Translations under genes and position numbers: made by a program
Part shown: piece after piece, positions 24,093 through 63,214 of the stretch
Numbering within the stretch: the first letter of the stretch is position 1
Layout of the letters: every line of letters starts with the position of its first letter
The notes under the pieces: generated by a model
Database searches by the model: none
What the model was told of the DNA's origin: nothing
Seen by the model: the letters and a program-made list of their open reading frames with translations, nothing else
Virus record (IMG/VR): IMGVR_UViG_3300012007_000010
Coordinates: 64,001-128,000 of that record
From: a virus
Taxonomy: Duplodnaviria; Heunggongvirae; Uroviricota; Caudoviricetes
Strand: one strand, 5' to 3'
DNA length: 64,000 nucleotides

Positions 24093-24094
24093 CT

Positions 24095-26506: not shown

Positions 26507-26526
26507 CAATAAAATCAGAAACAAGT

Positions 26527-26649
26527 ATGGCAAAGACTGTATCAATCAACAAGACACGCAAGGCCATCGCCTATGCGTATAACGTGAGTATCGACAATAT
26601 TCCCGAGGAAATCGAGGATCAGTTTATCAACTATCGCAAAGCAGCATGA
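26527..26649 (+). CDS. Small hypothetical protein (40 aa), ends -RKAA
   Basis: Translated by hand: MAKTVSINKTRKAIAYAYNVSIDNIPEEIEDQFINYRKAA. Confidence 0.6.
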   Translation: MAKTVSINKTRKAIAYAYNVSIDNIPEEIEDQFINYRKAA

Positions 26650-26652
26650 CCT

Positions 26653-26922: not shown

Positions 26923-26926
26923 GACT

Positions 26927-28036: not shown

Positions 28037-28079
28037 ATAAATTCATTCATCAACAAATCAAAATTCGGAGGACGAAGTT

Positions 28080-28946: not shown

Positions 28947-28979
28947 GGGAGAATTGAAGAATTGAAAAATTGAAGAGTC

Positions 28980-29474: not shown

Positions 29475-29478
29475 GACT

Positions 29479-30792
29479 ATGACACAGAAGGAGTTTGAAC
29501 GGCAGTGTATCGCCATCAACAACCGGCTGCGGGAGCCGGGCGAGGCGACCCAGAAGTGGATAGCCGCCAAGATATTTCCCGCAGGACTTATCAGTAGGTC
29601 ATATCGCCGCCGAAGGGTGCAGTATTGCTCGGAGTGCGGCAGCGAGATAGGCGTGCCGACACAGAAGGTGTGTCCCTGCTGTGGCGCACAGTGGACGGCA
29701 GAGCCGGAGGAGTGGGAGACGCGCCAGTCGGACTACCACATGGTAATGGAGGCCAAAGGCGATATCCAGGTGTGCCGCATCTACCGCGCCGACCGCTATA
29801 CGCACATCTACAAGAAGGTGCGTATGTATGTGGCCGAGGTGGAGCGCATTATGTATGCTCCGACGGGCGAGCGCAGGGTATTCGCCAAGTCGATACAGGG
29901 CATGTCTTATTACTACGACGCCTTCAGCTGGGGTTCGCCTATCACGCTGAAGCGCGAGGGCAAGGGGATGTCGTGGAGCGCCATGATGCGCTACAACCTG
30001 ACGGTGGCGGGCTATACTATCAAAAGCCTCACACAGCAGTGGCAGCACAAGGAGATACCGGCACTGCTGAACCGCTGGGAGGGCAACACCAGTGCGCTGC
30101 GGGTGATAGCCTATCCGTGGGGCGAGACGCTGGCGAAGACGGGGCAGGTGAAACTCTTCAGCTACTTTGTCAAAGAAAAGGAACTGCTGCCACGTGGAAT
30201 GGAACATGCGCTGAACATCTGCACCCGTAATCACTACGAGATAAGCGACCCGACGATGTGGCTCGACCATATCGCTATGCTCCGACAGTTTGGGCTCGAC
30301 ACCCACAACGCCCACTATGTGTGTCCCAAGGACCTACGGGCAGCGCACCAGCTGCTGGTTGACCGCCGCAACCGTGAGCGAGTGAAGCGAGAGGCAGAAC
30401 AGCGTGCCCGCCGCTATGCTGAGCGGCTGCAACAGATGGGGCAGGAGAAGGCCGACTATCAGCAGCAGTGGGGCAAGATGCTATCACTGCAGTTGACGGC
30501 AAAGAACCTGGACATACAGCCGCTGCACACAGTGGATGAATTTGCCGCAGAAGGTGCCGCCATGCACCACTGCGTGTTCGAGAATGGCTACTACAAGTCG
30601 AAGACAAACCTTATCCTCTCGGCCAAAGACGATGAGGGGCATCGGTTGGCCACTATTGAGTACAGCATAGGCACGGGCAGCATCAAACAGTGCCGTGCGG
30701 CCTGCAATGCCGTGCCAGAGAGGGATGCGGAGATACGGACGCTTATCACCAGTCACCGGCAGGACTTCGAGCGGCTGATGAAGGCGGCGTGA
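29479..30792 (+). CDS. pcfJ: PcfJ-like protein, ends -MKAA
   Basis: N-terminal CxxC/CxxC ribbon, C-terminal EFAAEGAAMHHCV domain; follows pcfK. Confidence 0.85.
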   Translation: MTQKEFERQCIAINNRLREPGEATQKWIAAKIFPAGLISRSYRRRRVQYCSECGSEIGVPTQKVCPCCGAQWTAEPEEWETRQSDYHMVMEAKGDIQVCRIYRADRYTHIYKKVRMYVAEVERIMYAPTGERRVFAKSIQGMSYYYDAFSWGSPITLKREGKGMSWSAMMRYNLTVAGYTIKSLTQQWQHKEIPALLNRWEGNTSALRVIAYPWGETLAKTGQVKLFSYFVKEKELLPRGMEHALNICTRNHYEISDPTMWLDHIAMLRQFGLDTHNAHYVCPKDLRAAHQLLVDRRNRERVKREAEQRARRYAERLQQMGQEKADYQQQWGKMLSLQLTAKNLDIQPLHTVDEFAAEGAAMHHCVFENGYYKSKTNLILSAKDDEGHRLATIEYSIGTGSIKQCRAACNAVPERDAEIRTLITSHRQDFERLMKAA

Positions 30793-30823
30793 GTTGAGAA
30801 TTGAAATTTAAACATTCAAAGTT

Positions 30824-31897
30824 ATGGCAACAAAAAGAAACAACGGAGGCCAGCAGAAGAAGCGCGGCTTCCAGATGAACGATCGGCAAAAAGAGAAGTA
30901 TGCCGAGTTATTTACAAGTGCGCTCGACCAGATGGAGGACGCACAGTGGACGAAGCCGTGGGTGGCACCCCGGCACATGGAACCCGCGAACTATCAACGC
31001 AGGAACAAGCCCTATCGAGGGATGAACAACTTCATCCTGACCCTGCTATGCGCTATCAAGGGGTGGGAGACACCGCTGTTCCTCACCTTCGACCAGCTGA
31101 CGGACATGGGGCTATCGCTCAATATGATGACGGACGAGGACGGGAATGTTATCCTGAAGGACAACGGCATGCCGCTGTTCGAGGGTAGCTTCCCAGTGGT
31201 GAAGATGCTGCCTCACTTCTATAAGGACGGCAAGCGGCTCACACCAAAGGAGTATGACGAGCTGGACGAGGAAGAGCAGGAGAAGTGCCGCAAGTTCTTC
31301 AGCATGAGAGCCTGGCCTGAGTTTAACCTATCGCAGACGGACTTCAAGGCGAAGTTCCCGGAGAAGTGGGAGGAGCTGACCCGTCTGCCGGAGCACGACT
31401 ATCAGGCTGGTACCCGCGATGAAGTGCTGGAGCGGATGATCATGCAGGGCGAGTGGCGCTGCGCTATCAAGTTCACGGGACACGAGAGCTACTACAGCCC
31501 CTCGAAGGACATCATCTGCCTGCCGGAGCGCAGCCACTTCCTCGGCGACGAGCTGTTCTATTCGACGGCTATTCACGAGATGGCGCACTCTACGGCGGGC
31601 GAACTGAAGCGCGACATGGGCGGTGGAGGCTTCGGCAGCGAGGGCTATGCCCGTGAGGAGTTCTGCGCCGAGCTGACGGCGGCGTGCGTCTGCTCTATGC
31701 TGGGCATCGGGCGACTGCTCGACGAGCAGCACATTGCCTACGTCAACAGCTGGCGCAAGGCTATCCGCGACGACAAGGACTTCATTCCGCAGGTCATCGA
31801 CCATGTGCAGCGGGCCACAAATTATATCCTGCGCCGCTACGACGAGGTGAACAAGGCGATGCACCCGCTGATGCTGCCTATGCCGATGGCGGCGTGA
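30824..31897 (+). CDS. ardC: ArdC-like antirestriction ssDNA-binding/zincin protein, ends -MAA
   Basis: WTKPW, YRGMN, FLTFDQ; IHEMAHST zincin; YAREEFCAEL. Confidence 0.9.
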   Translation: MATKRNNGGQQKKRGFQMNDRQKEKYAELFTSALDQMEDAQWTKPWVAPRHMEPANYQRRNKPYRGMNNFILTLLCAIKGWETPLFLTFDQLTDMGLSLNMMTDEDGNVILKDNGMPLFEGSFPVVKMLPHFYKDGKRLTPKEYDELDEEEQEKCRKFFSMRAWPEFNLSQTDFKAKFPEKWEELTRLPEHDYQAGTRDEVLERMIMQGEWRCAIKFTGHESYYSPSKDIICLPERSHFLGDELFYSTAIHEMAHSTAGELKRDMGGGGFGSEGYAREEFCAELTAACVCSMLGIGRLLDEQHIAYVNSWRKAIRDDKDFIPQVIDHVQRATNYILRRYDEVNKAMHPLMLPMPMAA

Positions 31898-31969
31898 AGC
31901 CCCACCCCCGCCCCTCCCCGATTGGAGAGGGGAGTATATAGACTATTCAAAGAAAAAATTCAAACGACT

Positions 31970-32173
31970 ATGACAAAAGAAGAAATTGCAAGACAGAAAG
32001 TAATTGAGAATATCACAGGTATGCTCCAGACCACGCCGTTCACCTTCGAGTTCAAGGTGGTGAAGAAGCCCAAGGGCATCAAGATTATCCACGAAGTGAC
32101 GCAGGAGCAGATGGACGCGCTGACCCTTCAGATGGTGGAGCGCAGTAGCAGTATCGAGAAAGTGGAGGAGTGA
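31970..32173 (+). CDS. Hypothetical protein
   Basis: ACGACTATG start. Confidence 0.65.
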   Translation: MTKEEIARQKVIENITGMLQTTPFTFEFKVVKKPKGIKIIHEVTQEQMDALTLQMVERSSSIEKVEE

Positions 32174-32188
32174 AAAACGATTACGACT

Positions 32189-32707
32189 ATGGCAACATTA
32201 GCAGACGAGCTGCGCAGTGAGATTATGCAGCAGTGCAAGGAGAATACAAAGAGCTTCCTTACAAGACGGGAGCATGTTATCAACGAGATAAGGAGCGGCA
32301 AACGTGAGGTGTTCTTTACATTGAGACGTCACTATTGCAATTACGAGGACGAACGTAAAGCAGAGCGTGAAGTGGAAAAGAATGTCGCCCATCCTGAAGG
32401 CTATCGCCTGTCGAGCTCAGGATGTGTGGACAACGTGGGCATCACCTACCGCAACGGGAAGCACTATGCGCAATTCATTAAAGGCAACAACTGGTACGAC
32501 AAGTCGGACTGTCAGTATGTGGACGTTGACGATACGCCGTATTGGAGAAAGGACTATCTGTATAACCGTGAGGAACTGCTCGATCTGGGCGGTTATTTCG
32601 AGCGTGAGGGCTTCCGGGTGTTCGTCAGCCTGTGCAGCGACTACGACGCACGATATCCTTATACCTACAACGCATTTAATATTGCTGACTTGATAGTGAC
32701 ACTCTAA
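32189..32707 (+). CDS. Hypothetical protein
   Basis: ACGACTATG start. Confidence 0.7.
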   Translation: MATLADELRSEIMQQCKENTKSFLTRREHVINEIRSGKREVFFTLRRHYCNYEDERKAEREVEKNVAHPEGYRLSSSGCVDNVGITYRNGKHYAQFIKGNNWYDKSDCQYVDVDDTPYWRKDYLYNREELLDLGGYFEREGFRVFVSLCSDYDARYPYTYNAFNIADLIVTL

Positions 32708-32720
32708 CAGCGTAACAACT

Positions 32721-33086
32721 ATGGCTAACGACTATCAGACATACGGTGAGCGGCGCATGATTGACGGTGTCGCTCACTATAGCCGAGATGAGCGCAGCGA
32801 CGGGCTGACCTACGGCTACGTGTACTGGAACGAGCGGGCCTTCAGGGAGCAGCCCGACGAGGTGTGCTACATTCCGGAGCACGCCTTCGACGACGTGCAG
32901 CCGGTGAGGGTGGACGGCACGGACTACTATCCCGCCGAAGAAGTGGAAGGCTATACGAGGCGCGACCTGGAGCGGATGCTGGAGGGCGAGACCGACGAGG
33001 ACGGCGACGCTATCACGGTGGAGGACTTCTTTCAGTCGCTCTTCTGGTGCTACCCCGAAACGAGACTGATGGAACTGACGTATTAA
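32721..33086 (+). CDS. Hypothetical acidic protein
   Basis: 121 aa. Confidence 0.7.
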   Translation: MANDYQTYGERRMIDGVAHYSRDERSDGLTYGYVYWNERAFREQPDEVCYIPEHAFDDVQPVRVDGTDYYPAEEVEGYTRRDLERMLEGETDEDGDAITVEDFFQSLFWCYPETRLMELTY

Positions 33087-33108
33087 CAAACAGAAAACGA
33101 AACGAACT

Positions 33109-33609
33109 ATGGCAGTAAGAAACATGGACGCTATTGAGCGTCATGGCAACATGATTGCCGAGCAGAAGGCCAACGAGCGCAAGATGCGTGAGGAGAGTTT
33201 CTGGCAGAGAGTGAACACTATCAGGGCGTGCCACGATGATGCGGTGGACTTCATCGACACGGTGGATGCGCTGGCTAAGAACGGACTGTGCGGCAGGTTC
33301 GACGAGTGGATGAAGCAGCAGAACGTGACGTTTGAAGGGTACAGGGGATTGATACGAGTATGCTGCCTGTCTGGGCGCAAGGAGTCGGCACTGGTCGGCT
33401 ACTATCCGAAGAAAGACGAGGTGCATTTCGGATGGAACGGCTACGGTATGGGCGAATCATACGACGTGAAGTCGCCGGGACAGATGGCCGACTATGTGAT
33501 ACACACCCGTATGGTGGCCGACCGTCACTACGACGAGGGCCTGACCAAGCTGGCCGCACGGCTGCAGCCGTTCCTGACGGCATTCTTTGAGTGGGTGAAA
33601 ACGATTTAA
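33109..33609 (+). CDS. Hypothetical protein
   Basis: 166 aa. Confidence 0.7.
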   Translation: MAVRNMDAIERHGNMIAEQKANERKMREESFWQRVNTIRACHDDAVDFIDTVDALAKNGLCGRFDEWMKQQNVTFEGYRGLIRVCCLSGRKESALVGYYPKKDEVHFGWNGYGMGESYDVKSPGQMADYVIHTRMVADRHYDEGLTKLAARLQPFLTAFFEWVKTI

Positions 33610-33621
33610 ACGATTACGACT

Positions 33622-34011
33622 ATGGGACAATGTTATTCTGTGGAAATCAAAGCGAGATTCACTGACGAGGAGGGCGCAAAGAAAGCGCTGCAGGCCAAAC
33701 TTGACAGGCATGAAGAGGAGCGTGTCTGCTACAACCTGGACCACTTCAAGGAACTTGGCATAGGCACTGACAACCTGCACGACCTGATTGGCATATTCTT
33801 CGGCGGATGGAAGGGGAGACTCGAAACTGCACCTGCCGACAAAACGTGGGAGTTTGCCGACTTCGATGCCTCCTATGGCTGGGAGAGTGTTATGATGGAA
33901 GCCTTCGAGGTAATCGCGCCCTACTTGTCTGACGACTCTGAAATTATGATCTGGCCCGATTCCGGCTGCGACCACGGAACGGTCAGGAACGGGAAATGCA
34001 AATGGGCATAA
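33622..34011 (+). CDS. Hypothetical protein
   Basis: ACGACTATG start. Confidence 0.7.
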   Translation: MGQCYSVEIKARFTDEEGAKKALQAKLDRHEEERVCYNLDHFKELGIGTDNLHDLIGIFFGGWKGRLETAPADKTWEFADFDASYGWESVMMEAFEVIAPYLSDDSEIMIWPDSGCDHGTVRNGKCKWA

Positions 34012-34029
34012 CTAAAACGAATAACGACT

Positions 34030-34419
34030 ATGAAGCATAAAGATTTCTATGCAGAAATCATGAATCTGCACAAAAACATCGTGGCCGAGACGGTGGCCCT
34101 GATGGTGGAGCATGGTGTGAAGGAGGTTGAACTGCTGGGTAGCGACTGCGACCATGCCTACATAGTTGGCTATCCGGGCGACGGTGCCGACGTGATGGAG
34201 ATGGAGGTGAACAAGGTGTACTACCGCGACTGCCAGCTGATGCTCGACGTTATCCTCGACATCGACACCGAGGAACTGGCCGAGCAGAGCGAGAACGGCG
34301 ACATCGGCGATGCCTACCAGTGCTGGCGTGCCAACGACTTCGAGCACTTCAAGCCCTGCGGCGGTATCGAGATGGTGTATGAGAGCGTATGGCAGGTGTT
34401 GAACAAATCAAACAAGTAA
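34030..34419 (+). CDS. Hypothetical acidic protein
   Basis: ACGACTATG start. Confidence 0.7.
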   Translation: MKHKDFYAEIMNLHKNIVAETVALMVEHGVKEVELLGSDCDHAYIVGYPGDGADVMEMEVNKVYYRDCQLMLDVILDIDTEELAEQSENGDIGDAYQCWRANDFEHFKPCGGIEMVYESVWQVLNKSNK

Positions 34420-34424
34420 TGACT

Positions 34425-34580
34425 ATGGCAGAAGAAGTAACTACAGAGAAGAAGTACAAGAACTGGAACGTGTGGCGTGACGGCAAGATGAAGAAAATAA
34501 TAACCGTGCCGATGACTACCGGACAGGCGCTGAAGCATTTCAAGGCTGACGCGGTGGAAGGATGTGAGTTGAACGAGTAA
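34425..34580 (+). CDS. Small hypothetical protein
   Basis: GACTATG start after previous stop. Confidence 0.55.
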   Translation: MAEEVTTEKKYKNWNVWRDGKMKKIITVPMTTGQALKHFKADAVEGCELNE

Positions 34581-34590
34581 AACAAGAACT

Positions 34591-35070
34591 ATGAATTTCA
34601 GAAACGACTGGGAGACCACCCTTGAAATGGCTAACAAGGACTTGAAAAAATATGGGATGGAAATCCGAGTGTTGAACGACCCAGACGAGGGCATCTATTC
34701 GTGCGACATACACGACGGCTTTGAGTGGGTGAATTTCGCCGACAACTACTATGAGAATGAGCTGGGCGAGCTGGTGAACGATGCCTGGACACACGCCAGA
34801 GCCAAGGCCAAGGCGAAGGAGCCGGTGAAGGTGTGGGTGGTTACGTTCATCAACGACCATGAGTGGGAACTACCTAACGTGTCGGTCAACGTGTTCGGCA
34901 CGAAGGAGGAAGCCCGTCAGTGTTTGGACGATGAGTGGCAGACGCTGACCACGGAGGGCGGCGAGTGGCAGGAGGACGTGAGCCGTAAAGGCGACGACGA
35001 TTTCATGTTTGTGGACAGTTGCGAGAACCGCGTCATCGGCGAGATCAAGGAGAAGGAAGTGAAACTTTAG
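34591..35070 (+). CDS. Hypothetical acidic protein
   Basis: 159 aa. Confidence 0.7.
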   Translation: MNFRNDWETTLEMANKDLKKYGMEIRVLNDPDEGIYSCDIHDGFEWVNFADNYYENELGELVNDAWTHARAKAKAKEPVKVWVVTFINDHEWELPNVSVNVFGTKEEARQCLDDEWQTLTTEGGEWQEDVSRKGDDDFMFVDSCENRVIGEIKEKEVKL

Positions 35071-35081
35071 CAACAAGAACT

Positions 35082-35474
35082 ATGGGAAAGAAATTCAGGT
35101 GCGAGGCACCTATTGACAACAAGAACCTGATGGAGGACGGGTTTGAGGACGATGTGTTCCAAGACCTCTATGCAGCGAGCGACCACCGCAAGCGTGGTAT
35201 GCGCCACCTGATAGGCCATCACATGGAGTGGGGCAGTGAGGTGGGTGGTGCTATCATCGAAGCCAAGTGGCACTACGGCGAGCACATGGTGGTCATCAAC
35301 GTGCTGGCCGCTGCACCGACAGAGGACTTCGAGGAGGTTCGCAAGGAGGTATTTGCCGCCGCTACCGACACGTTCAAGGAGTGGCAGTGCGACGACAACC
35401 CCGGTCTCGTGGTAGAGACCGAGGTGAGGGACGGTTCTCTGATTGTAAGTTTTTATTTTGAGACGGACGATTAA
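35082..35474 (+). CDS. Hypothetical acidic protein
   Basis: Start ACTATGGGAAAGAAATT. Confidence 0.7.
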   Translation: MGKKFRCEAPIDNKNLMEDGFEDDVFQDLYAASDHRKRGMRHLIGHHMEWGSEVGGAIIEAKWHYGEHMVVINVLAAAPTEDFEEVRKEVFAAATDTFKEWQCDDNPGLVVETEVRDGSLIVSFYFETDD

Positions 35475-35486
35475 AACAGAGAGACT

Positions 35487-35933
35487 ATGGGAAAGAAATT
35501 TAACGTGGATGTGGATATCACCATGTCGTGCCGCATCGAGGTGGATGCGGAGAGTGAGGAACAGGCGAAGACTATCGTGGGCAACTGGATAGGCGATGAC
35601 CCGTGGCAGTACGTCAGGGACGGGCACTACATCAAGCATGAGTTTGAGGAGGTGAGCGAGTGCAGCGACGACCCGAAGGACGAGGTGCTGGAGCAGTGGT
35701 CGATGACGTTCAAGGAGGCGGTGCTCTATGCTCGTGACCAGATGGACGAGGACGACCTGGCTATCCTGCGGGCTCAGGTGAGCAAGAACTACAAGCAGCA
35801 CAATGCACCGGCGACGGACATTGACGACTCGAAGGTTATCGACCTGCTGGAAGAGTACGGCGAGGATCACGACCTGCCGGAAGGTTGGTATCTGGACGAG
35901 TACGATGCCGACGACGTGATGCTGGTGCTGTAA
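35487..35933 (+). CDS. Hypothetical acidic protein
   Basis: Start ACTATGGGAAAGAAATT. Confidence 0.7.
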   Translation: MGKKFNVDVDITMSCRIEVDAESEEQAKTIVGNWIGDDPWQYVRDGHYIKHEFEEVSECSDDPKDEVLEQWSMTFKEAVLYARDQMDEDDLAILRAQVSKNYKQHNAPATDIDDSKVIDLLEEYGEDHDLPEGWYLDEYDADDVMLVL

Positions 35934-36160
35934 CCTATCAGCCCCGCACGGATTATCCTACCCTTCGATGGGATGCGGGGCACGAAGACTCGGGCGGCAA
36001 ATCCGTCTGAGCGTAACGTGAAAAAGCGTTTTCATAACTTGTAATGCCCAAGCCGGGTGCTCCGGCTGGGCTAAATTGATTTTGAATGTTGACTGTGCAA
36101 CTGGGCTGTGAAGTTCGGTTGCATTTTTCTACGATTATTGACCTCAAAACATATACGACT

Positions 36161-36358
36161 ATGACGAAGAAAGCTATCGACCGGGCCTTGGACGAAGGAC
36201 AGGTGGTGGTGCTCAGGCACGACCCTATGAGCCGTCTGTGCCGAGACCTCTTCGGAAATCTGGTGGTGGTGTCGCTACGCCACGACGAAGCGGAGCCCAT
36301 ACGGCTGGCTACCGCAAGCGACAGGAGAGCAGCAACAATATACGAACCAAAACAATAG
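36161..36358 (+). CDS. Hypothetical protein
   Basis: ACGACTATG start. Confidence 0.6.
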   Translation: MTKKAIDRALDEGQVVVLRHDPMSRLCRDLFGNLVVVSLRHDEAEPIRLATASDRRAATIYEPKQ

Positions 36359-36369
36359 GAGGACAGACT

Positions 36370-37317
36370 ATGGCATACAAATTTTCAGAACTGAACAAAC
36401 TGGGCGACAAGTTTATGGCGGTGTTCGGCATCGGCTTCAAGCCGTTCTACGACGGACTGATGTCGGTTGTCTCTAAGCAGCTGTGCATCGACATCATGAA
36501 GTTCGACGAGTGGCTGCACGAGAAGCACGGAGACTATGAGGATGCAGGTCAGAGCATGGATGACTGTATCCGTGAGCACTATGGCGACGAAGGAGCGAGG
36601 CTGATAAACGAAGTGATTGGCATGGACGGCGATGATGTTCCGCCTGAACCTGAGCCGGAGGAGCCGAAGAGAAAGCCCAAGGCCAAGGCGAAAGGCAAGG
36701 CTAAGACGAAGCCCGTGGATGATCAGAGAGCATTTAACAACAGGATTGCACTGTCGCTGCTGCGGCAGTGTGCATGGATGTGGGAACACTGCATGCGGAG
36801 CAACAACGAGGGCTCGTTCACGATGAAGGACGTGCGGATGGGTTTGCTCCATCTTGACCGCTATAAGAGTCCTGCGGGGGTTATCATGTTCGACCTTTGC
36901 AGCTGCGAATACTGGGATGTGTTCGACCGACAGGACATCGAGGGCGTGAGCTACGATGCAAAGAATGAGAGGATGAGTATGTTCCTGTCCCACGACCCGC
37001 AGGGCGACCAGACGCTGGGATTCGGATGCAGTTTCGAGGCGAAGGATGTTTTTGACGTGACGGATCAGGTGTGTAGCCCGAGCCTGTTGCAGAAGGTGCG
37101 CTTCTGCTATAAGGACGGCGAGCGGTGGACGGACATCCCCGACATCGACGTGAAGCCTGTGAAGAATAAGGCGACTACGAAAAAAGCAAGACCCAAGGCG
37201 AAGGCTGCCAAGGAGGCGAGGGCTGCGGAGATACCGCAGCAGACGGAACAGGCGGAGCCGACGTTTGCGGAGCGGCTGCGAGAGGCGCTGCTGAAGCACT
37301 ATAAGGCAGCGGCATGA
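36370..37317 (+). CDS. Hypothetical two-domain protein, ends -KAAA
   Basis: GGAGG-N7-ATG. Confidence 0.75.
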   Translation: MAYKFSELNKLGDKFMAVFGIGFKPFYDGLMSVVSKQLCIDIMKFDEWLHEKHGDYEDAGQSMDDCIREHYGDEGARLINEVIGMDGDDVPPEPEPEEPKRKPKAKAKGKAKTKPVDDQRAFNNRIALSLLRQCAWMWEHCMRSNNEGSFTMKDVRMGLLHLDRYKSPAGVIMFDLCSCEYWDVFDRQDIEGVSYDAKNERMSMFLSHDPQGDQTLGFGCSFEAKDVFDVTDQVCSPSLLQKVRFCYKDGERWTDIPDIDVKPVKNKATTKKARPKAKAAKEARAAEIPQQTEQAEPTFAERLREALLKHYKAAA

Positions 37318-40845: not shown

Positions 40846-41961
40846 ATGCTACGCGCTTATAAATACCGCATCTATCCCACCGACGAGCAGAAACAGATGC
40901 TCGCCAAGACCTTCGGCTGCTGCCGCTATGTGTATAACTGGGCGCTGAGGAAAAGAGAAAGTGTCTGGAAAAAGGAACATCGACGGATACAGGAAGCAGA
41001 AATGAAAAGACTGATAGTCTCAGAATTGAAACATGGGAAAGCAAAATGGCTGTTAGAGGTAAGCGACAGCGCTGTTAGTTTCGCTATCGACAATCTTTAT
41101 GAGGCGTATGACAGGTATTTCGATAAGAAGGCAAACCTGCCGAAGTTTCATGTAAAGGAATCGCATCAAAGTTTTCGAGACCGAAGGAAGAAAAACAGAC
41201 GGAATATTCGTGTGGATTTTAAGAAATCGACACTAACAATTCCGAGGATTAAAAAAATTCCATGCCGATTCCATCGCGAATTTGATGGCGAAATAAGACA
41301 AGTTCACGTATCGAAGACGGCCTCTGGCAAATACTTTGCGAGTCTGTTGGTTGAAACGGGAGAACCATTGCCTATTGTTCCGCAGATTGACGCGGAAAGT
41401 ACGATAGGAATAGATACAGGCATTCATACCTATGCAACGCTTTCAGACGGCGAAGTTTTTGATAAACCTCCACGAAACAAAAAGGAATATCGAAGAATCA
41501 AGATATTGGAACGTCGAATGCAAAAGATGACAATTGGTAGCCGTAAATATAACATTTTGAAACGTCGGCGTGCTGCATTGTATGAGAAAGATACTAATCG
41601 CAGACATGATTACATTCATAAGAAAACGCATTATCTTGCATACGAAAAAGAGGCCAGTGCATATAGCGTGGAAACTTTGTGTGTTAAAGAAATGACAAAA
41701 AATGAGCGGATTTCAAAGCAGGTTAGGTATAATTATTTTCAAGGGTTCTATAGGCAATTGGAATATAAATGTGCGTGGAACGGGAAGCGTCTCTTGAAGA
41801 TTGATCGCTATGCCCCATCATCAAAAATATGTAGCGTTTGCGGTTATGTAAATCCAAATGTCAAATGGGGTATGTATAAGTGGGTATGTCCTGCTTGCGG
41901 TACACAACATGACCGTGATTTGAATGCGGCTATGAATATAAAAGCCATTAGTCTTGGTTAA
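40846..41961 (+). CDS. tnpB: IS200/IS605-family RNA-guided nuclease TnpB
   Basis: MLRAYKYRIYPT HTH; RuvC D (GIDTG), E (SVETL), D (HDRDLNAA); CxxC/CxxC zinc finger. Confidence 0.95.
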   Translation: MLRAYKYRIYPTDEQKQMLAKTFGCCRYVYNWALRKRESVWKKEHRRIQEAEMKRLIVSELKHGKAKWLLEVSDSAVSFAIDNLYEAYDRYFDKKANLPKFHVKESHQSFRDRRKKNRRNIRVDFKKSTLTIPRIKKIPCRFHREFDGEIRQVHVSKTASGKYFASLLVETGEPLPIVPQIDAESTIGIDTGIHTYATLSDGEVFDKPPRNKKEYRRIKILERRMQKMTIGSRKYNILKRRRAALYEKDTNRRHDYIHKKTHYLAYEKEASAYSVETLCVKEMTKNERISKQVRYNYFQGFYRQLEYKCAWNGKRLLKIDRYAPSSKICSVCGYVNPNVKWGMYKWVCPACGTQHDRDLNAAMNIKAISLG

Positions 41962-42123
41962 AAAGACTCTACCTTTGGGGCGAAGGGAAGTAATGTCCGT
42001 GGAGATTGGGGTATCGGTCACCAGCCGTTGCGCTTAACAAAGTAAAACGGAATGTCTATGAAGCGGAAAGACAAAGAGGATTTTCCTCGATGTTGTAGCT
42101 CACTTTGGAGACTCTAAGTTCAA
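41962..42123 (+). mobile_element. TnpB omega-RNA scaffold / IS605 right end and probable guide
   Basis: GAGGATTTTCCTC hairpin then GTAGCTCAC ending at 42103, typical of IS605 right ends; guide would begin TTTGGAGACTCTAAG. Confidence 0.6.
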
Positions 42124-42188
42124 GTTTCACAGGTTCATATTTGTGGGACTTGAACTTAAATTTTATTATGAATTTAAATTTTACAACA

Positions 42189-45100
42189 ATGAGTAAATTA
42201 CAAAGACTGCGCGACAACATAGCCGCGCTAAAACATGCACTGTCTTCATGCAGCGAGTACGACAACACTATCTTGAACAAGTATAGTGGCTTTGGTGGGA
42301 TGACATTTGTGCTGAACCCGCTGGAGCCGACGGCGTGGAGCAAGAGCGACATGGTGTACTATCAGGACACCGTGCGGCTGCACGAGCTGCTGAGAGAGGA
42401 AGCAGGGAGCGACAAGGAGTATCAGGCGTGGGTGGAGAGTCTGAAGGCGAGCACGCTGACGGCTTACTATACGCCACGGGAGATTGCGGAAGCCATCTTC
42501 AAGGCTATCTACTGCCACGGCGAGAAGACATTCTATGCCAAGCGCTTCCTGCCTAAGACGATGCTCGACCCTGCGGCTGGCATGGCGGTGTTCGGACGCG
42601 CCGCCATGCTCAGTTCGGCAGGCAGCCGTCAGCCGGACGTGACGATGTATGAGAAGGACTTGCTGACGGGGCTGCTTCTCAAACGAATGTACCCTTGGGC
42701 TGAGATTTATAACAAGGGCTTCGAGACTATCCCGGCTTCGGAGCTGGGCAAGTATGACCTGGTGAGCACGAATGTTCCGTTTGGGGATGTGCGCATTTTC
42801 GACCCGGAGTATAGCAACTCGAAGAGCCAGGTACGCAGGGAGGCGGCGAAGATGATTCACCGCTACTATGTGCTGAAAGGACTGGACTGCCTGCGAGAGG
42901 GTGGTGTACTGGCGTATATCATCACGAGTAACTACCTGAACCGTGACGGTGAGCAGTTGGGCGAGGCACTGAAGCAGGCACGACTCATCGGGGCGTATCG
43001 GTTGGCGAACAATCTCTTCAAGGAGAGTGGTACCGAAGTAGGTACCGACCTCTTAGTGATGCAGAAGGACTCGAAGCGAGGCGAGCTGACCGAGGAAGAG
43101 ACGATGCTGCTGACGCAGTATGAGGACGGGGGATGCCCGACGAATATGTACTTCGATATGTGGCCGGAGCGGGTGATTGCTACGGCGTGGACGGTTGATA
43201 CGGATGCCTATGGGAAGCGGGCGTTTGTGTATAAGCACCGCGACGGGGTGCAGGGGATTGCACGGCAGCTGGGCGAGGTGCTGAGCAGGGATCTGAAGGA
43301 ATACCTCACCCCCGACCCCTCTCCGAAGGGCGAGGGGAACTTTGAGGGCGAGGGGAGTGACGATCAAAAAGGCAAGGCGAAGGAGAGGGAAGATAGTGAC
43401 CCCACCCCTGGCCCCTCCCCTACAGGGGCGGGGAGCGGCTACCGCAAGAGCGAGAAGAAGCAGGAACCAAGGATGACGGAGAAGCAGAAGGCTATCATCG
43501 CTATACACAAGGCTTACACTGCACTTTACGAATACGAGGCCAAGGAGATGACTGAGGGTGTGGAATTGCGCAAGGAGCTGAACCGACTGTATGATGCTTT
43601 CGTTGCTGAGTATGGCCCGCTGAACTATGCCCCGAACCTCGGTGACGTGAAAAAGGTGGCAAAGGAACTGCGCTCGTTGGAGTATCGCTCTACTGAGAAC
43701 GGACGTTGGACGAAGGCTGACATCTTCGACAGACCAGTGGCATTCTCGACTGACGAGATGCACAGCGTGACAGATGCTCACGAGGCGCTGGCGCAGTCGC
43801 TGAATGACTATGGCAAGCCCGATGTGCGCTATATGGCGGCACTGACGGGGAAGAGCGAGGAGGAAATCTGCGACGAGCTGGACGGGGAAATTTACTATAA
43901 TCCTCTGAGTGATGAGTGGGAGATTAAGGCGAGGTTCATCTCAGGGAATGTGATTGAGAAGATAGAGCGCATTGAAGCGCTGGTTTCAAGTTTCAATTTT
44001 CAAGTTTCTGGTGACGAACCTGGCGCAAAGGACTTGAAACCTGAAACTCGGAACTTGAAACTGGCGAGAGCGCAGAAGGCGCTCGCTGCCCTGCAGGCCG
44101 CCGTCCCTGAGCCTATCCCCTTCGACGAGCTGGACTTCAACTTGGGTGAGCGATGGGTGGACACGAAGATTTACGAGGACTTTGCCAGTGAGTTCTTCTC
44201 GATGGCTGGCAATGACTACGGCGCAAAGGTGGAGGTGACGGTGAAGTATGACCGTAACCTGGACCAGTATGCCTGCGACAACGACCGGGGCAACGAGAAA
44301 ATATATACGCAGTATGCCGTGAGCAGCGAGGCGAGCCAGTCGCTCGACGGTATGGATCTGCTGCAGCACGCACTGCAGAACAGCTGCCCGAAGATGATGA
44401 AGTATCGCCGCGACGAGATGGGGCGCAAGATTCAGCAGGGCAAGAGCTATGCCAAGGACGAGGATCCGGAGGCTACTCAAAAAGCTAACACGCTCATTGA
44501 GGAAATCCGACAGGGCTATCAGGACTGGCTCTTGCGACAGCCGAAGACGCTGCGCGACGGGCTGGCTGATAAATACAACCGATTGTTCAACTGTCATGTG
44601 AAACCGCAGTTCGACGGTTCACACCAACGATTCCCTGGCATCGACTGGGCAGGACTGGAGCAGAAGTACGGCATACCGCAGCCGGTGTATAAGGACGGCA
44701 AGAAGGTGAGCGGCGGCCTGTATAAGAGTCAGGAGGACTGTATCTGGATGCTGGTGATTAACGGCGGTGGCATCTGCGACCACGAGGTAGGCAGCGGCAA
44801 GACGCTCATTATGTGTCTCGCTGCTCACGAGATGAAGCGGTTGGGCTTCTGCCACAAGCCGATGATCATCGGACTGAAAGCCAACGTGGCTGCCATTGCC
44901 GAGACTTACATGACGGCTTATCCCAAGGCTCGTGTGCTCTACGCCAAGCACGCCGACTACAGCGGAAAGGAGCGTGAGAACTTCTTCAATCGCATGAAGA
45001 ATAACGACTGGGACGTAGTGATTATGAGCCACGACCAGTTCGGCTTCATCCCGCAGTCGGACGAGGTACAGGCCGATGTCATCCGTGAGGAGCTGAACCA

Positions 45101-47339
45101 CCTGAACGAGAGCCTGAAGGCGTTGTATGGCTCGTATGATAGCGTATCGAGCCGACTGAAGCGCGGGCTGGAGAAGAAGAAGGCCAACCTGGGAGCTAAG
45201 TTGCAGGGCTTGTTACAATCCATCGAGAAGCGTAAGTCCGACGTAGTGGACTTCAAGATGATGGGCATCGACCACATCTTCATTGACGAGAGCCACCAGT
45301 TCAAGAACCTCGGCTTCACCACCCGTCACGACCGTGTGGCAGGCTTAGGCAACTCGGAGGGCTCGAAGCGAGCATACAATCTGCTCATGGCTATTCGCAC
45401 CATTCAGCAGCGCACGGGGCGCGACCTCGGCGCGACGTTCCTCAGTGGTACGACGATTACGAATAGTCTGACGGAGCTGTACTCGCTGTTCCGTTATCTG
45501 CGACCGCAGGCGATGGCAAAGCAGGGTATCACCTGTTTTGATGCCTGGGCAGCAATATTCACCCGCAAGACTCAGGAATACGAGTTCGGACTGACCAACC
45601 AAATTGTGCTGAAGGAGCGCTTCCGCTACTTTATCAAGGTGCCTGAGCTGGCGCAGTTCTACAACGAGATAACCGACTACCGAACGGCAAAGGACGTAGG
45701 CATAGAGCGGCCTGAGAAGTATGCACGATTGATGCACATCGAGCCGACCCCCGACCAGGAGGAGTTTATACACACGCTGATGAAGTTTGCCGAGACGGGT
45801 GACTTCTCACTTATTGGTATCAACAACCCCACCAAGCAGCAGGAGATGGCGAAGATGCTGTACGCCACCGACCTCGCCCGCAAGATGTCGCTCGACATGC
45901 GGCTGATTGACCTGGCGTATGGCGACCATCCACGGAGCAAGGCGAGCATGTGCGCCAAGATGGTAGCTCAGTACTATCACAAGTTCGAGGATGTGAAGGG
46001 CACGCAGATGATTTTCAGTGACCTCTCGACCTGGCAGAACGATGGCAAGTTTAATATATATGCAGAGATAAAGCGAAAGCTGGTGGAGGACTACGGCATA
46101 CCCGCCCGCGAGATACGCTTCATACAGGAGGCACGGTGCGACACGAAGAAGAAGAAGCTCATCCACGAGGTGAACGACGGCGACGTGCGTATCCTCTTCG
46201 GCAGCACCTCAATGCTCGGAACTGGTGTGAACGCCCAGGAGCGCGTCGTGGCGGTGCATCACCTTGATACACCGTGGCGCCCCGCCGACCTGGAGCAGCG
46301 CGACGGCAGGGCCGTGCGTAAGGGCAACGTCGTTGCCCGTGACTACGGCGACAACAAGGTGGATGTGATTATCTACGCCGTAAAGCGAAGTCTGGATGCC
46401 TATAAGTTCAATCTGCTGCACTGCAAGCAGACCTTTATCCAGCAGTTAAAGCAGGGGCAGTTGGGCAAGCGTACCCTTGACGAAGGTAGCATGGACGAGA
46501 AGGGCAACATGAACTTCGCTGAGTACATGGCTATCCTCTCTGGCAATACCGACCTGCTGGAGCGTGCCAAGCTCGACAAGAAGATTGCCGCCTTAGAGGT
46601 GGAGAAGAAAAATTTCCACCGCGACCAGCGTCAGGCAGAGGAACGCCGCGACCGCCTGCAGAAGGATGTGGAGCGGCTGAAGCAGGATGTCCGGGATGCA
46701 CAGGCCGACCAGCAGCAGTATGACGCACAGAAGCAACTGGGCGAGCAGGGCGAGGTGCTGAACGCCCTGGTGCTCGACGGCTTCACCGTGCCCGAGACCG
46801 ATGCCGACGGCAAACCTCTCGACTATGCAGGACAGCAGAAGACCCTCGGTGAGCGGTTGTGGCGCATCGAGCAGACGGCTCACACACAGGGCATTCCCCT
46901 GAAAATAGGCTCGCTTTACGGCTTCGACCTGATGGTGAAGACCAACGAGCAGATTGTCCGCGATGCCGACGGCAACGAGGATGTCCTCTACACCAACTAC
47001 TTCACCGTGCAAGGCTGTCGCATCCTGCATAAGGTGAACGACGGTTATCTCTCGCACAAGTCGCCCCGTCTGGCAGCGGAGTATGGTCTGCGCTGTCTGC
47101 AGGAGCTGCCACGCCGCATCGCCAGTTGGCAGCAGTGGATAGCCGACAACAACGTGACTATTCGCCAGCTCAACGAACTGCTGAAGCAGACGTGGAGCAA
47201 GGAGGACGAGCTGCGCCGAGCCAAGGCCGACCTCGCCAAGCTCGACCGCAAGATCAACGCTGAGATGAACGGCAAGCAGTCCGGCGGATCATCGTCGGAG
47301 GGCAACACCTCCGACGGCGGAATGAAGCGGGCGGCGTAA
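42189..47339 (+). CDS. DarB-like N6-adenine methyltransferase-SNF2 helicase fusion (1716 aa), ends -RAA
   Basis: LDPAAG and TNVPFGD MTase motifs; HEVGSGKT, IDESHQFKN, HHLDTPWRPADLEQRDGR helicase motifs. Confidence 0.9.
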   Translation: MSKLQRLRDNIAALKHALSSCSEYDNTILNKYSGFGGMTFVLNPLEPTAWSKSDMVYYQDTVRLHELLREEAGSDKEYQAWVESLKASTLTAYYTPREIAEAIFKAIYCHGEKTFYAKRFLPKTMLDPAAGMAVFGRAAMLSSAGSRQPDVTMYEKDLLTGLLLKRMYPWAEIYNKGFETIPASELGKYDLVSTNVPFGDVRIFDPEYSNSKSQVRREAAKMIHRYYVLKGLDCLREGGVLAYIITSNYLNRDGEQLGEALKQARLIGAYRLANNLFKESGTEVGTDLLVMQKDSKRGELTEEETMLLTQYEDGGCPTNMYFDMWPERVIATAWTVDTDAYGKRAFVYKHRDGVQGIARQLGEVLSRDLKEYLTPDPSPKGEGNFEGEGSDDQKGKAKEREDSDPTPGPSPTGAGSGYRKSEKKQEPRMTEKQKAIIAIHKAYTALYEYEAKEMTEGVELRKELNRLYDAFVAEYGPLNYAPNLGDVKKVAKELRSLEYRSTENGRWTKADIFDRPVAFSTDEMHSVTDAHEALAQSLNDYGKPDVRYMAALTGKSEEEICDELDGEIYYNPLSDEWEIKARFISGNVIEKIERIEALVSSFNFQVSGDEPGAKDLKPETRNLKLARAQKALAALQAAVPEPIPFDELDFNLGERWVDTKIYEDFASEFFSMAGNDYGAKVEVTVKYDRNLDQYACDNDRGNEKIYTQYAVSSEASQSLDGMDLLQHALQNSCPKMMKYRRDEMGRKIQQGKSYAKDEDPEATQKANTLIEEIRQGYQDWLLRQPKTLRDGLADKYNRLFNCHVKPQFDGSHQRFPGIDWAGLEQKYGIPQPVYKDGKKVSGGLYKSQEDCIWMLVINGGGICDHEVGSGKTLIMCLAAHEMKRLGFCHKPMIIGLKANVAAIAETYMTAYPKARVLYAKHADYSGKERENFFNRMKNNDWDVVIMSHDQFGFIPQSDEVQADVIREELNHLNESLKALYGSYDSVSSRLKRGLEKKKANLGAKLQGLLQSIEKRKSDVVDFKMMGIDHIFIDESHQFKNLGFTTRHDRVAGLGNSEGSKRAYNLLMAIRTIQQRTGRDLGATFLSGTTITNSLTELYSLFRYLRPQAMAKQGITCFDAWAAIFTRKTQEYEFGLTNQIVLKERFRYFIKVPELAQFYNEITDYRTAKDVGIERPEKYARLMHIEPTPDQEEFIHTLMKFAETGDFSLIGINNPTKQQEMAKMLYATDLARKMSLDMRLIDLAYGDHPRSKASMCAKMVAQYYHKFEDVKGTQMIFSDLSTWQNDGKFNIYAEIKRKLVEDYGIPAREIRFIQEARCDTKKKKLIHEVNDGDVRILFGSTSMLGTGVNAQERVVAVHHLDTPWRPADLEQRDGRAVRKGNVVARDYGDNKVDVIIYAVKRSLDAYKFNLLHCKQTFIQQLKQGQLGKRTLDEGSMDEKGNMNFAEYMAILSGNTDLLERAKLDKKIAALEVEKKNFHRDQRQAEERRDRLQKDVERLKQDVRDAQADQQQYDAQKQLGEQGEVLNALVLDGFTVPETDADGKPLDYAGQQKTLGERLWRIEQTAHTQGIPLKIGSLYGFDLMVKTNEQIVRDADGNEDVLYTNYFTVQGCRILHKVNDGYLSHKSPRLAAEYGLRCLQELPRRIASWQQWIADNNVTIRQLNELLKQTWSKEDELRRAKADLAKLDRKINAEMNGKQSGGSSSEGNTSDGGMKRAA

Positions 47340-60955: not shown

Positions 60956-61369
60956 TCAGAATGGCAGGTCGTCGGTGCCGTTGCCTTGCTGCACGGGCTG
61001 GCCCTGGGCGTTGGTCTGCGGCGGGAAGGGCGACTGCGATGGCTGAGGGCTGACGGCTGACGGCTGAGCCTGCTGCTGATACGGCTGCTGCCCTACGGAG
61101 CGAAGCACGTTGTAGCAGCGGACCTCATTGAACCAGCGTCCGTTGTACTCGTGTGCGTCGATGTCGAACTGTATTGTGACATTCTGCTCGCCCTGACGGA
61201 GGGCGAACTGCTTGATGCGGTCTTCGCCGAAGATGCGGAAGACGATGTGGCGCGGCCACTGGCCGGGGATTTCCATTACATACTCCTGCGACATCCACGG
61301 GTTGCCCGTGCGGTTTGATGTGCCAGACTGGGCGGGCATCACTTGAATGATTGTTCCTGTTAAATCCAT
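60956..61369 (-). CDS. DUF3127 OB-fold (SSB-like) protein
   Basis: GTIIQVMPAQSG.S...W..QEYVME...FDIDAHEYNGRWFNEVRCY; acidic DDLPF tail. Confidence 0.85.
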   Translation of the reverse strand: MDLTGTIIQVMPAQSGTSNRTGNPWMSQEYVMEIPGQWPRHIVFRIFGEDRIKQFALRQGEQNVTIQFDIDAHEYNGRWFNEVRCYNVLRSVGQQPYQQQAQPSAVSPQPSQSPFPPQTNAQGQPVQQGNGTDDLPF

Positions 61370-61373: not shown

Positions 61374-61805
61374 CTATTCCTTGTTTGTTGTTTCCGTTAA
61401 TTTACGCTTCTTCTTGTCCTTCTGAAAGGGCATGAGCCGTTGCTGCTTCGGGTCGTAGGTGTGCGAGCGGACGATGCCAAGGCGGAAGGCAAAGCCCTCC
61501 TCAATCTTCGCGCCCCTCGACAACTGCCAGCCGTCTATCATGCAGATGGTGTCCGAGCGCGACAGCAGCCAGAGATCATAGACGAGCACCGTGCGGTAGG
61601 CACCGTCCTTGCCCAGCACGCGCTCCATCGCCTTGTAGAGCCACTTGAACCGGCAGGGCCAGGCGTTGGCGGGGTTGACGGCGCGAAGTCCCGTATGGCT
61701 GTTGATAAGGGTGGCGCAGTCGTGGAACGCCTGTACGTTCCGCTCCTGCTGCTCCTGCGTCGGGGCGGTCATTGCCCCAGAGATATAGATACGTTGCTTC
61801 TTCAT
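61374..61805 (-). CDS. DUF4406 (nucleoside deoxyribosyltransferase-like) protein
   Basis: RIYISGAMT, VNPA, DTICMIDGWQLSRGAKIE. Confidence 0.8.
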   Translation of the reverse strand: MKKQRIYISGAMTAPTQEQQERNVQAFHDCATLINSHTGLRAVNPANAWPCRFKWLYKAMERVLGKDGAYRTVLVYDLWLLSRSDTICMIDGWQLSRGAKIEEGFAFRLGIVRSHTYDPKQQRLMPFQKDKKKRKLTETTNKE

Positions 61806-61826
61806 TTTGTTTCTTGTTATCAATAA

Positions 61827-62057
61827 TCAGAATATCGTCGATGTTGTTTCCTCAGAGAACAATATATTGCATACTGCCACACGATGCTTCTTTTGCTCTC
61901 TAACCGCAGTAAAAGCCGTGTTGTCGTTATCGGGGTAAACCTCTCTGGCGTAAATTCTCACTTCGGATGCCTTTGCACCCAGTTCATTTTCCATATCGCG
62001 GAACAATCTCTTAAAAGCATCCTGATAGTCCGCAATAGTCTTTTTCTTCTGTGCCAT
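61827..62057 (-). CDS. Hypothetical protein
   Basis: 76 aa. Confidence 0.6.
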   Translation of the reverse strand: MAQKKKTIADYQDAFKRLFRDMENELGAKASEVRIYAREVYPDNDNTAFTAVREQKKHRVAVCNILFSEETTSTIF

Positions 62058-62127
62058 AATCGTTTATTCGTTTCTGTTTTTATTGATGGCCTGTCGGCCA
62101 GGAATTTGTTAAATAAAAACTTCTCGC

Positions 62128-62337
62128 TTATCTGTGTCTATGCCTTTTGTTCATCAGGTAGATGCCGTATTCTTTTGGTGACATAGTATTGTATGCGTTC
62201 TCTATCCGTTGCCGTTCAGCCTCGATGCTGGCAGCGGCCTCGATGCCGTATTCATCCTTCATGACCGTTGCCAGTTCGTTAACCTCCTTGGTCGAAAGTC
62301 TAACCAATGCTTCGGCTATTGATTTGATGTCTGCCAT
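62128..62337 (-). CDS. Ribosomal protein bL12 (L7/L12) N-terminal domain fused to a novel basic tail
   Basis: [36 protein letters not shown] closely matches the recalled Bacteroidota bL12 N-terminus; no hinge/CTD. Confidence 0.85.
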
Positions 62338-62341
62338 ACGC

Positions 62342-62671
62342 TCATTCCTTTCCATTTAGTTTTGCATCGAGCATGGCACTGAGGGCTTCGTCGCCGCGCC
62401 CCATCTTGATCATCAGCTTTGCCACCATCGTGTTGAAGTCGTCCGACTGCACCAGCAGCAGGGCTATCAGTGCGAGGTGTTTGATCTGCTGCGACTGGAT
62501 GGCTGAGATTTCCAGTACCTTGTCGAGCATTCCCTGCTCCGACCATCCGCGTTGGCGCAGTTCGGGCAGATTGCGGGCGAACTTGTCGCTTGATGCTATC
62601 ATGTCGAGTACGTACTTCAGCAGTGCCGACTTGTCCTTCAGCAGGTTCAGAATATCTACTTGTTCGTTCAT
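62342..62671 (-). CDS. Hypothetical helical protein
   Basis: 109 aa. Confidence 0.7.
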
Positions 62672-62749
62672 ATCGCTTTTATTTTTACAAGTTACTGACC
62701 CCACTCCTGCCCTCCCCTACGATGTGAGGGCAGGGCTGGGGCTCATTCT

Positions 62750-63214
62750 TTACTCTTCGCTGTCCTCCTCTTTCTTGTACTCGAAGACATCCATGATCTT
62801 AGTCTCGGCGATGTTCGACTTCTCGTAGTCAATCATCGTGCCGTCCATCACTTCGTTGATGTTCTTGACTGCGCCGTCGAGCGTGGCGGCCTGTACGAGG
62901 TAGGTGACGTTGCTGCGCTTCTCCTTCTCGGTTTTCTCGTCGATGGTGATGAATACGAGCTTGGCCTTGTAATAGCGGTCGCTCATTTCCGCATCGTCGA
63001 AGAACACCTCCTTGTACTGTGCCTTTTTCACGTCAGTGATTTCAAACTCGCCGCTGATGTAGGCGGACATTTCCTCGGTGATGCGCTTCTCGGCCTCACT
63101 GAAGCTGATGGCATCCACCACATACTGTTCTGTCACTTTCTTCTGCAAGCCGTCCTCCATTGCCTTCTCGTAACGAATCTTGCACTCAAACCATGTTGCT
63201 GTTGTTGATCTCAT
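62750..63214 (-). CDS. DUF4494 domain protein
   Basis: WFECKIRYEK..EDGLQKKVTEQYVVDAISFSEAEKRI. Confidence 0.85.
   Translation of the reverse strand: MRSTTATWFECKIRYEKAMEDGLQKKVTEQYVVDAISFSEAEKRITEEMSAYISGEFEITDVKKAQYKEVFFDDAEMSDRYYKAKLVFITIDEKTEKEKRSNVTYLVQAATLDGAVKNINEVMDGTMIDYEKSNIAETKIMDVFEYKKEEDSEE

Follow-up and report, generated by a model that had tools for sequence, protein, structure and literature searches.

Described phage bL12 proteins and related architectures

In ribosomal protein bL12, the N-domain dimerizes and anchors the protein on uL10, and the C-terminal domain (CTD) recruits IF2, EF-Tu, EF-G and RF3 (PMC12548414, citing Diaconu 2005 and Wahl 2000). Ribosomal proteins encoded by viruses are able to enter ribosomes (PMC6375957), and the phage bL12 domains reported by Mizuno et al. 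(2019; PMC6375957) are of the C-terminal, factor-binding type. Examples are the proteins of Dinoroseobacter phage DFL12phi1, Ralstonia phage RSB3 and Salmonella phage FSL SP-076 (PMC6375957, Table 1), which carry the CTD (Pfam Ribosomal_L12), often within larger proteins, and for which an action on the ribosome has been proposed. A sequence-only reading of the DNA analysed here had stated that known phage bL12 homologues keep the CTD, which agrees with that survey (Mizuno et al., 2019).

The family described below resembles these proteins in being a phage-acquired fragment of bL12 and in being under purifying selection, but it carries the opposite half, the anchor. The bL9 homologue of Mycobacterium phage 32HC (PMC6375957) likewise keeps a ribosome-binding N-domain, with a C-terminal domain that has been replaced non-homologously; it differs in that another ribosomal protein and another ribosomal site are concerned, and no conserved portable tail is described for it. 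The free RNA polymerase alpha CTD proteins of phages are also isolated host-machine interaction domains without the part that does the core role, although the machine and the domain are different.

Proteins of the archaeal and eukaryotic P-stalk begin with a domain for dimerization and anchoring, continue through a spacer that is flexible or variable, and end in a short, conserved peptide that does the binding. The analogy with these proteins (aP1, P1/P2; the P-stalk is discussed in PMC7768734) is one of architecture only, with no homology, and the P-stalk peptide is acidic and hydrophobic whereas the phage tail is hydrophobic and polybasic. With cellular Bacteroidota bL12, such as the product of Prevotella rplL, the likeness is one of homology over the N-terminal 33–38 residues, the two-helix dimerization and anchoring domain; the phage protein lacks the hinge and CTD, is encoded outside an rplJ-rplL operon and has a conserved C-terminal helix of its own. 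The literature search found no paper on an N-domain-only phage bL12 or on its family. The family is real, conserved, apparently restricted to phages and undescribed in the literature searched.

Source genome and position of the gene

The window, the whole stretch of 64,000 bp that was analysed, comprises bases 64001–128000 of an IMG/VR record of 129,669 bp that is 100% complete by CheckV; positions are those of the window unless another contig is named. The source, as yet uncultured, is a large Bacteroidota phage of rumen or gut, with 55% GC and two tRNA genes, tRNA-Gln(CTG) (9228–9299, minus strand) and tRNA-Met(CAT) (17834–17906, plus strand). The best bL12 matches are from Prevotella and Prevotellaceae, and the host order is likely to be Bacteroidales; because the N-domain is nearly invariant across Bacteroidota, only the phylum can be assigned safely. 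The phage genome encodes a head maturation protease, a tail-like protein and a reverse transcriptase, and the window also encodes PcfJ-like and anti-restriction proteins. An IS-type transposase gene (40846–41961, plus strand; phrog_506, E 2.6e-96) lies directly upstream of the gene for a 1744-aa methylase-SNF2 ‘polyvalent’ protein (42105–47339, plus strand).

The bL12-like gene encodes a 69-aa protein, P0001. By the ORF list and translation it lies on the minus strand at 62131–62337, with its TAA stop at 62128–62130, and the 69-residue translation used in the sequence-only reading was exact. A second possible ATG, at 62355, would lengthen the protein by six residues, but this codon overlaps the stop of the ORF before it. 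M1 is invariant and A2 is present in 70 of the 73 aligned homologues, most of which begin MADIK; as nearly all share the M-A start, the start is placed at 62337. Upstream, a 120-aa ORF (62345–62704, minus strand) ends 4 nt before this start, and downstream is a 76-aa ORF (61830–62057, minus strand). Neither has an assigned function, and both belong to a variable cassette. One metagenome contig of a relative joins 62060 to 62342 through 51 other letters and so lacks the bL12-like gene, and other relatives’ contigs skip from 61805 to 62757 or 62763, which removes the gene together with both small neighbours. These joins across the gene or the three-gene cassette indicate that the bL12-like gene is accessory. 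No recurring neighbour that might be a partner was found across ten loci. Among runs recorded as RNA, only short, low-depth contigs of relatives were found, and these runs may contain DNA.

The minus-strand block that holds the gene also encodes two DNA methylases, a DUF3127 SSB-like protein, a DUF4494 protein and a DUF4406 protein that resembles nucleoside deoxyribosyltransferases. This content fits a putative early or middle replication-related module. The DUF3127/SSB-like protein (60956–61369, minus strand) ends in D-D-L-P-F, which is reminiscent of the acidic tip that bacterial SSB uses at its C-terminus to recruit its partners.

A 145-aa protein with a free RNA polymerase alpha CTD is encoded elsewhere in the phage genome, outside the window (L099:1501–1680, corresponding to G000:C1:5851–6030, minus strand; PF03118, 33.3 bits against a cut-off of 23.8). 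In the fully assembled relative L004, a gene of this kind lies approximately 2.5 kb from the bL12-type gene.

GGAGG occurs 7–9 nt before an ATG at 18 places in the window, against approximately 7 expected from shuffles, and 10 of the 18 starts are in a plus-strand block at 23933–36372. The motif is absent at that distance ahead of the bL12-like gene itself. Ribosomes of Bacteroidota normally work without Shine–Dalgarno pairing, and such enrichment is unexpected for a phage of this phylum.

The N-terminal domain

The sequence-only reading had noted that the first 36 or so residues nearly match a bL12 N-terminus of Bacteroidota that it quoted. The quoted sequence occurs exactly in several Prevotella MAG rplL genes and in L007, and P0001 is identical to it at 29 of 36 positions. 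Pfam PF16320 (Ribosomal_L12_N) matches residues 4–36 with 29.6 bits (E 5.7e-7), above the curated cut-off of 25 bits, and comparison of the family profile with a Bacteroidota bL12 profile by hhalign gives a probability of 99.1% (E 7e-19) over 38 columns. The L12_N match that the earlier reading had proposed to look for is thus a true one. Residues 1–33 are 79–85% identical to bL12 of Prevotella and other Bacteroidales. In the AlphaFold2 (AF2) model, residues 1–37 align with the N-domain of Escherichia coli L7 (1rqt) with an rmsd of 2.1 Å (Z 2.9), and no other structure gave a recognizable match. Residues 1–38 are accordingly described here as a bL12 N-domain, of which residues 1–36 (62230–62337, minus strand) form the putative dimerization and uL10-anchoring part, as indicated by PF16320, hhalign, bL12 identity, the AF2 helices and the 1rqt alignment. 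With PF16320 encoded in a bona fide viral genome, P0001 is a virus-encoded ribosomal-protein homologue.

In the clade of the window (the window itself, L092, L002, L089, L090 and L003), the N-domain keeps the bL12 hydrophobic positions and most of the exposed charged residues. Across the 73 cluster representatives over which conservation was counted, the host-like charged positions E9, K17, E18, E21, K27, E29 and E33 are retained in 74–96%. Five positions that are invariant in host bL12 are altered: N13 to R or K, V16 to T or A and T24 to M in most members, and V12 and G31 in many.

The strength of the Pfam match is graded across the family. P0001 and P0015 score above the cut-off, P0017 reaches 18 bits and L003 reaches 13 bits, and in L004/L006 and L005 the N-domain has no Pfam match, with the tail unaltered. 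The N-domain of P0088 has also drifted below Pfam detection, and its tail is intact. This graded decay suggests a single capture followed by divergence, and it shows that not every family member needs to resemble bL12.

Absence of the hinge and C-terminal domain

Beyond residue 36 neither the Ala/Gly hinge nor the CTD follows, as the earlier reading had described; PF00542, the bL12 CTD, is absent from the protein, and no match to it was found anywhere in the 129.7-kb phage genome at E <= 1. In the alignment with Bacteroidota bL12, a charged spacer stands where the hinge would be. The whole protein scores 20.1 bits against the NCBIfam bL12 equivalog TIGR00855, below the cut-off of 84.4. The gene is flanked by small phage ORFs and lies outside an rplJ-rplL operon, of which true examples are seen in L007 and L077. 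On the grounds of hinge, CTD, equivalog score and operon, P0001 is an L12_N-domain protein and not a bL12 orthologue.

A protein of this make-up is a credible candidate for action on the ribosomal stalk. In the reading that we favour, to which we give a little less than an even chance, the protein sits on uL10 through its N-domain, or forms a pair with host bL12, and the basic helix takes the place of the factor-recruiting domain. The same N-domain evidence would serve equally for an action on the free pool, in which heterodimers with host bL12, or capping of free uL10, disturb stalk assembly or the autoregulation of rplJL, so that fewer new ribosomes are made and existing ones are left as they are. 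Autoregulation of rplJL by uL10-(bL12)n is established, and this counts towards such an action; it would, however, leave the strictly conserved tail without a role, and we consider it quite improbable.

The spacer and the conserved C-terminal module

All members follow the same plan, in which the N-domain is followed by a helical spacer of variable length and sequence, an invariant S-P-K-x-Y-G-h-x-L-h-N and then five or six basic residues. In P0001, the variable charged spacer that replaces the hinge comprises residues 37–52 (62182–62229, minus strand), delimited by high pN, varying length and the AF2 model; the 52-aa member P0082 has no spacer. The C-terminal module comprises residues 53–69 (62131–62181, minus strand), with an S-P helix cap, K-x-Y-G-h-x-L-h-N and the basic run, and is delimited by its conservation, its synonymous re-coding and its occurrence on other N-termini. 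S53, P54, Y57 and G58 are present in 100% of the 73 representatives, L61 in 99% and K55 in 95%, and the last six positions are nearly always K, R or H. By these counts the tail is the most conserved part of the family.

The AF2 model, made from the family alignment, has a mean pLDDT of 85 and a pTM of 0.42. It places helices at residues 4–12, 16–30, 35–51 and 54–68, the last of them capped by S-P, and residues 34–69 resemble a generic helical hairpin. Foldseek comparison of the model with the PDB returned nothing at E <= 0.001, and a wide VIA-align comparison reached a best Z of 4.1, with generic helical hairpins throughout. When the C-terminal 60 residues of uL10 were folded with two copies of the phage protein, the complex scored 0.15 against a mark of 0.32, a value that speaks neither for nor against binding.

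A profile of the tail alone, run against 1.84 billion representatives, gave 12 matches. Three are low-complexity repeat proteins; the others are all small proteins of 33–75 aa and represent the bL12-type family and two other scaffolds. In the first of these, P0130/P0157 (71 aa), the tail follows an N-terminus without detectable likeness to bL12; this cluster of 17 members occurs on rumen phage contigs of up to 92 kb (P0168/P0157 at L094:6001–6216), with the same C-terminal module of 20 residues. The second, P0131 (58 aa), likewise a rumen-phage protein, also has the same tail on an N-terminus without detectable likeness to bL12. When both scaffolds are aligned with the family by hhalign, only the last 20 residues align, with probabilities of 97% and 96%. 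The tail occurs once per genome and always at the extreme C-terminus. The ‘new basic tail’ of the sequence-only reading is better named a portable, conserved C-terminal helix module.

These properties bear on what the tail does. It may itself be the effector, with the bL12 N-domain merely borrowed as a compact dimerizer, so that a dimer with two basic amphipathic helices binds DNA, RNA or another common target off the ribosome; it might then be a small regulator that binds nucleic acids, or a nucleoid-associated protein, in the early or replication phase. In favour of this, nothing but the tail is invariant, the tail occurs on unrelated N-termini and is swapped by recombination at the module boundary (see below), and the N-domain decays in several sublineages in which the tail is not lost. 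The neighbouring genes for DNA methylases, an SSB-like protein and nucleotide metabolism are also consistent with this, and S-P-K-K/Q followed by a run of K or R resembles minor-groove and arginine-rich nucleic-acid-binding peptides. However, in the window’s clade the N-domain is approximately 80% identical to host bL12, including many exposed charges, despite saturated synonymous sites, and dimerization alone needs less; so host-like an N-domain should cross-react with the bL12 and uL10 of the host, whatever its ‘purpose’. An off-ribosome effector, the chief competitor of the favoured reading, is possible, though on the unlikely side.

Alternatively, the tail may be a sorting or turnover signal, such as a basic protease tag, a membrane-targeting helix or a packaging or injection signal, carried by varied small cargo domains. 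Its place at the extreme C-terminus, its single copy per genome, its portability between unrelated N-termini and the order of an amphipathic stretch followed by a polybasic run would all suit such a signal. Against this, the invariant S-P..Y-G..L, with its glycine, suggests a specific interface for helix packing more than it does a degron, and searches of the domain and family libraries and of PDB sequences found no match to a known signal. We give a signal of this kind only a slim chance.

The origin of the tail was also considered. In hhalign comparison with full bL12, the tail profile aligns P-K-Q-Y-G-I-S with K-D-E-Y-G-I-E of the N-domain (E 0.076), and origin by internal duplication is a weak possibility. 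A relic of bL12 strand 1/helix 4, as placed by MAFFT, was rejected, as hhalign against full bL12 gave seven columns only. The tail profile found no similar host segment in five Prevotellaceae and Bacteroidaceae genomes (best E 0.56). PDB sequence searches with the family and tail profiles returned only a chance segment of HflX (E 0.28–0.65), and matches to phrog_13651 (E 0.007) and to the sigma-like factor NF005385 (19.7 bits against a cut-off of 136) were judged to be due to chance or uninformative.

The C-terminal helix of Bacteroidota uL10 (e.g. L077:2769–2948) has an invariant L-L-Q-S-P kink, next to which S-P-x-K-N-V-I-S-x-L is superficially tail-like; the tail and this alpha-8 segment both read S-P-x-x-x-x-I-S-x-L. 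Mimicry by the tail of the second bL12-binding segment of uL10 helix alpha-8 was rejected, with profile–profile probabilities of 0.04% and 0.2%.

Family membership and distribution

A sequence search recovered 28 short homologues, and a profile search recovered approximately 75 clusters at 90% identity, of 52–89 aa, before the true bL12 proteins of 125 aa begin. Five more members were found on IMG/VR phage contigs of up to 128 kb, and the metagenomes that yielded related sequences are from the gut or rumen of cattle and sheep. In the ESM Atlas, searches reached the family’s own viral cluster and L12_N clusters, with scores below 0.9. Some JGI records automatically name members ‘ribosomal protein L7/L12’.

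Among 185,579 bacterial species genomes, the best 80 of 587 matches are all cellular bL12, aligned over residues 1–32 to 1–40 only, and no full-length family member is among them. On this evidence the family looks to be phage-only.

In the cultured and GenBank phage collection, the sole match, MT836236, was rejected as a phage bL12, since it is a bacterial rplA-rplJ-rplL-rpoB contig. Labelled ‘Bacteriophage sp.’, this entry (L007; MT836236.1, 1–5842) is probably a mis-binned Bacteroidales contig and may mislead searches for phage bL12.

Selection and recombination

Over the first 33 codons, the gene is 68–76% identical in DNA sequence to 14 host rplL genes, with pS of 0.76–1.10 and pN of 0.09–0.14. 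The combination of saturated pS and low pN indicates that the N-domain is an old acquisition kept at the protein level and not a fresh capture. Within the window’s clade, the N-domain shows pN of 0.09–0.24 at pS of 0.5–1.0. Comparisons between phage orthologues mostly show saturated synonymous sites, with pN of 0.07–0.39 in the tail and of 0.5–0.7 in the spacer, where it is close to pS. The strongest argument here that the domain may still meet a host partner, uL10 or bL12, and not just itself, is that surface residues like those of the host are kept although synonymous change is saturated.

Comparison of L089 (6001–6216) and L090 (6001–6249) reveals approximately 97% DNA identity through the N-domain and spacer. 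From the S-P-K codons on, nearly every synonymous site differs, and the peptide is the same except for one K/Q exchange. This pattern places a recombination joint within the gene, at the very border of spacer and tail, and reveals that the tail peptide is very strongly constrained. L005 shares the DNA of the spacer end and tail with L089 (49 of 51 tail bases), with a different N-domain. Together with the L089/L090 joint, this shows that the modules are shuffled among phages.

These data also bear on a further alternative, that the gene has no function and is what remains of host rplL after recent capture and truncation, followed by junk sequence. The protein is short, lacks the CTD and is encoded in a variable cassette that is missing from some relatives, as might be expected of a remnant. 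However, there are 73 intact cluster representatives, synonymous divergence is saturated with low pN in both the N-domain and the tail, and the same tail peptide is encoded by almost fully re-coded DNA. Recent capture of junk is refuted by these observations, and a remnant of any such kind is extremely improbable. The search for intact orthologues that the sequence-only reading had called for thus yielded at least 73 cluster representatives with the same fusion, and with purifying selection on the tail. The gene is best described as a functional small phage gene of three modules: a host-type bL12 N-domain, the part by which bL12 dimerizes and is anchored on the C-terminal helix of uL10; a freely evolving helical spacer; and an invariant amphipathic-plus-polybasic helix in place of hinge and CTD.

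Possible action on the ribosomal stalk

The sequence-only reading had proposed a hijacker of the ribosomal stalk. This is supported in part: the L12_N domain is borne out and intact orthologues have the same fusion, but the proposal is complicated by the finding that the tail is the invariant part, by the scaffolds that are not bL12-like and by the decay of the N-domain. In the favoured reading, the N-domain would admit the phage protein to the host stalk, either as a homodimer on uL10 or by pairing with a monomer of host bL12. At some stalk positions a basic helix would then stand in for the domain to which IF2, EF-Tu, EF-G and RF3 are recruited. As an independent docking module, the tail would probably bind a second target that is polyanionic or acidic (rRNA, mRNA, DNA or the surface of an acidic protein). 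Overall, the recruitment of factors on host ribosomes would be tuned or re-targeted in early or middle infection. Binding to uL10 or bL12, the target of the tail and any effect on translation are all inferred.

Several lines of evidence favour action on the stalk. The N-domain scores above the Pfam cut-off, is 79–85% identical to bL12 and, by comparison with host rplL, has long been retained at the protein level; its conserved charged surface exceeds the needs of a bare hydrophobic dimer core. Constraint on the tail is very strong at the protein level, and there is no full-length member among the best bacterial matches. The gene lies in a putative early or middle block, and the free RNA polymerase alpha CTD of the same phage is a second isolated docking domain, likewise taken from the machinery of host gene expression. 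There are also precedents, both in virus-encoded ribosomal proteins that enter ribosomes and in the phage bL9 with a replaced C-terminus. Action on the stalk is made less likely by the tail, and not the N-domain, being the invariant element, and by the presence of the same tail on the P0157/P0130 and P0131 scaffolds. The drift of the N-domain in L004/L006, L005 and P0088, the change at five host-invariant positions and the accessory nature of the gene weaken it further.

Simple dominant-negative action would be costly, since the phage needs working ribosomes. Dimers of bL12 with a single CTD still function, so heterodimers could decorate ribosomes without killing translation, which would suit the phage.

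A bolder form of stalk action is a replacement arm made by the phage, with the N-domain on uL10 and the short conserved C-terminal helix, in place of a globular domain, recruiting a different partner to the factor-binding region, as a counterpart of the peptide-tipped P-stalk. We give this a small chance. If true, the choice of factors or mRNAs by host ribosomes would be re-wired in the course of infection, perhaps in concert with the cluster of early genes led by GGAGG, in a phylum that normally ignores Shine–Dalgarno sequences.

Known phage bL12 cases carry the factor-binding half of the protein, and the present family carries the anchoring half together with a conserved peptide module. What appears new, judged from the comparisons above, is that the tail is the most conserved part, is portable on two unrelated scaffolds and is exchanged at the spacer/tail boundary, with an N-domain that decays in sublineages. 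Bacteroidota are an important phylum of the gut and rumen, with unusual translation initiation. If the protein is loaded on the stalk, it would remodel the GTPase-recruiting arm of the bacterial ribosome as no viral protein is yet known to do, and would offer a natural means of peptide display on the stalk of Bacteroidota ribosomes. If it is not loaded, what remains is a portable C-terminal docking helix under strong constraint, which several kinds of small early phage proteins have in common.
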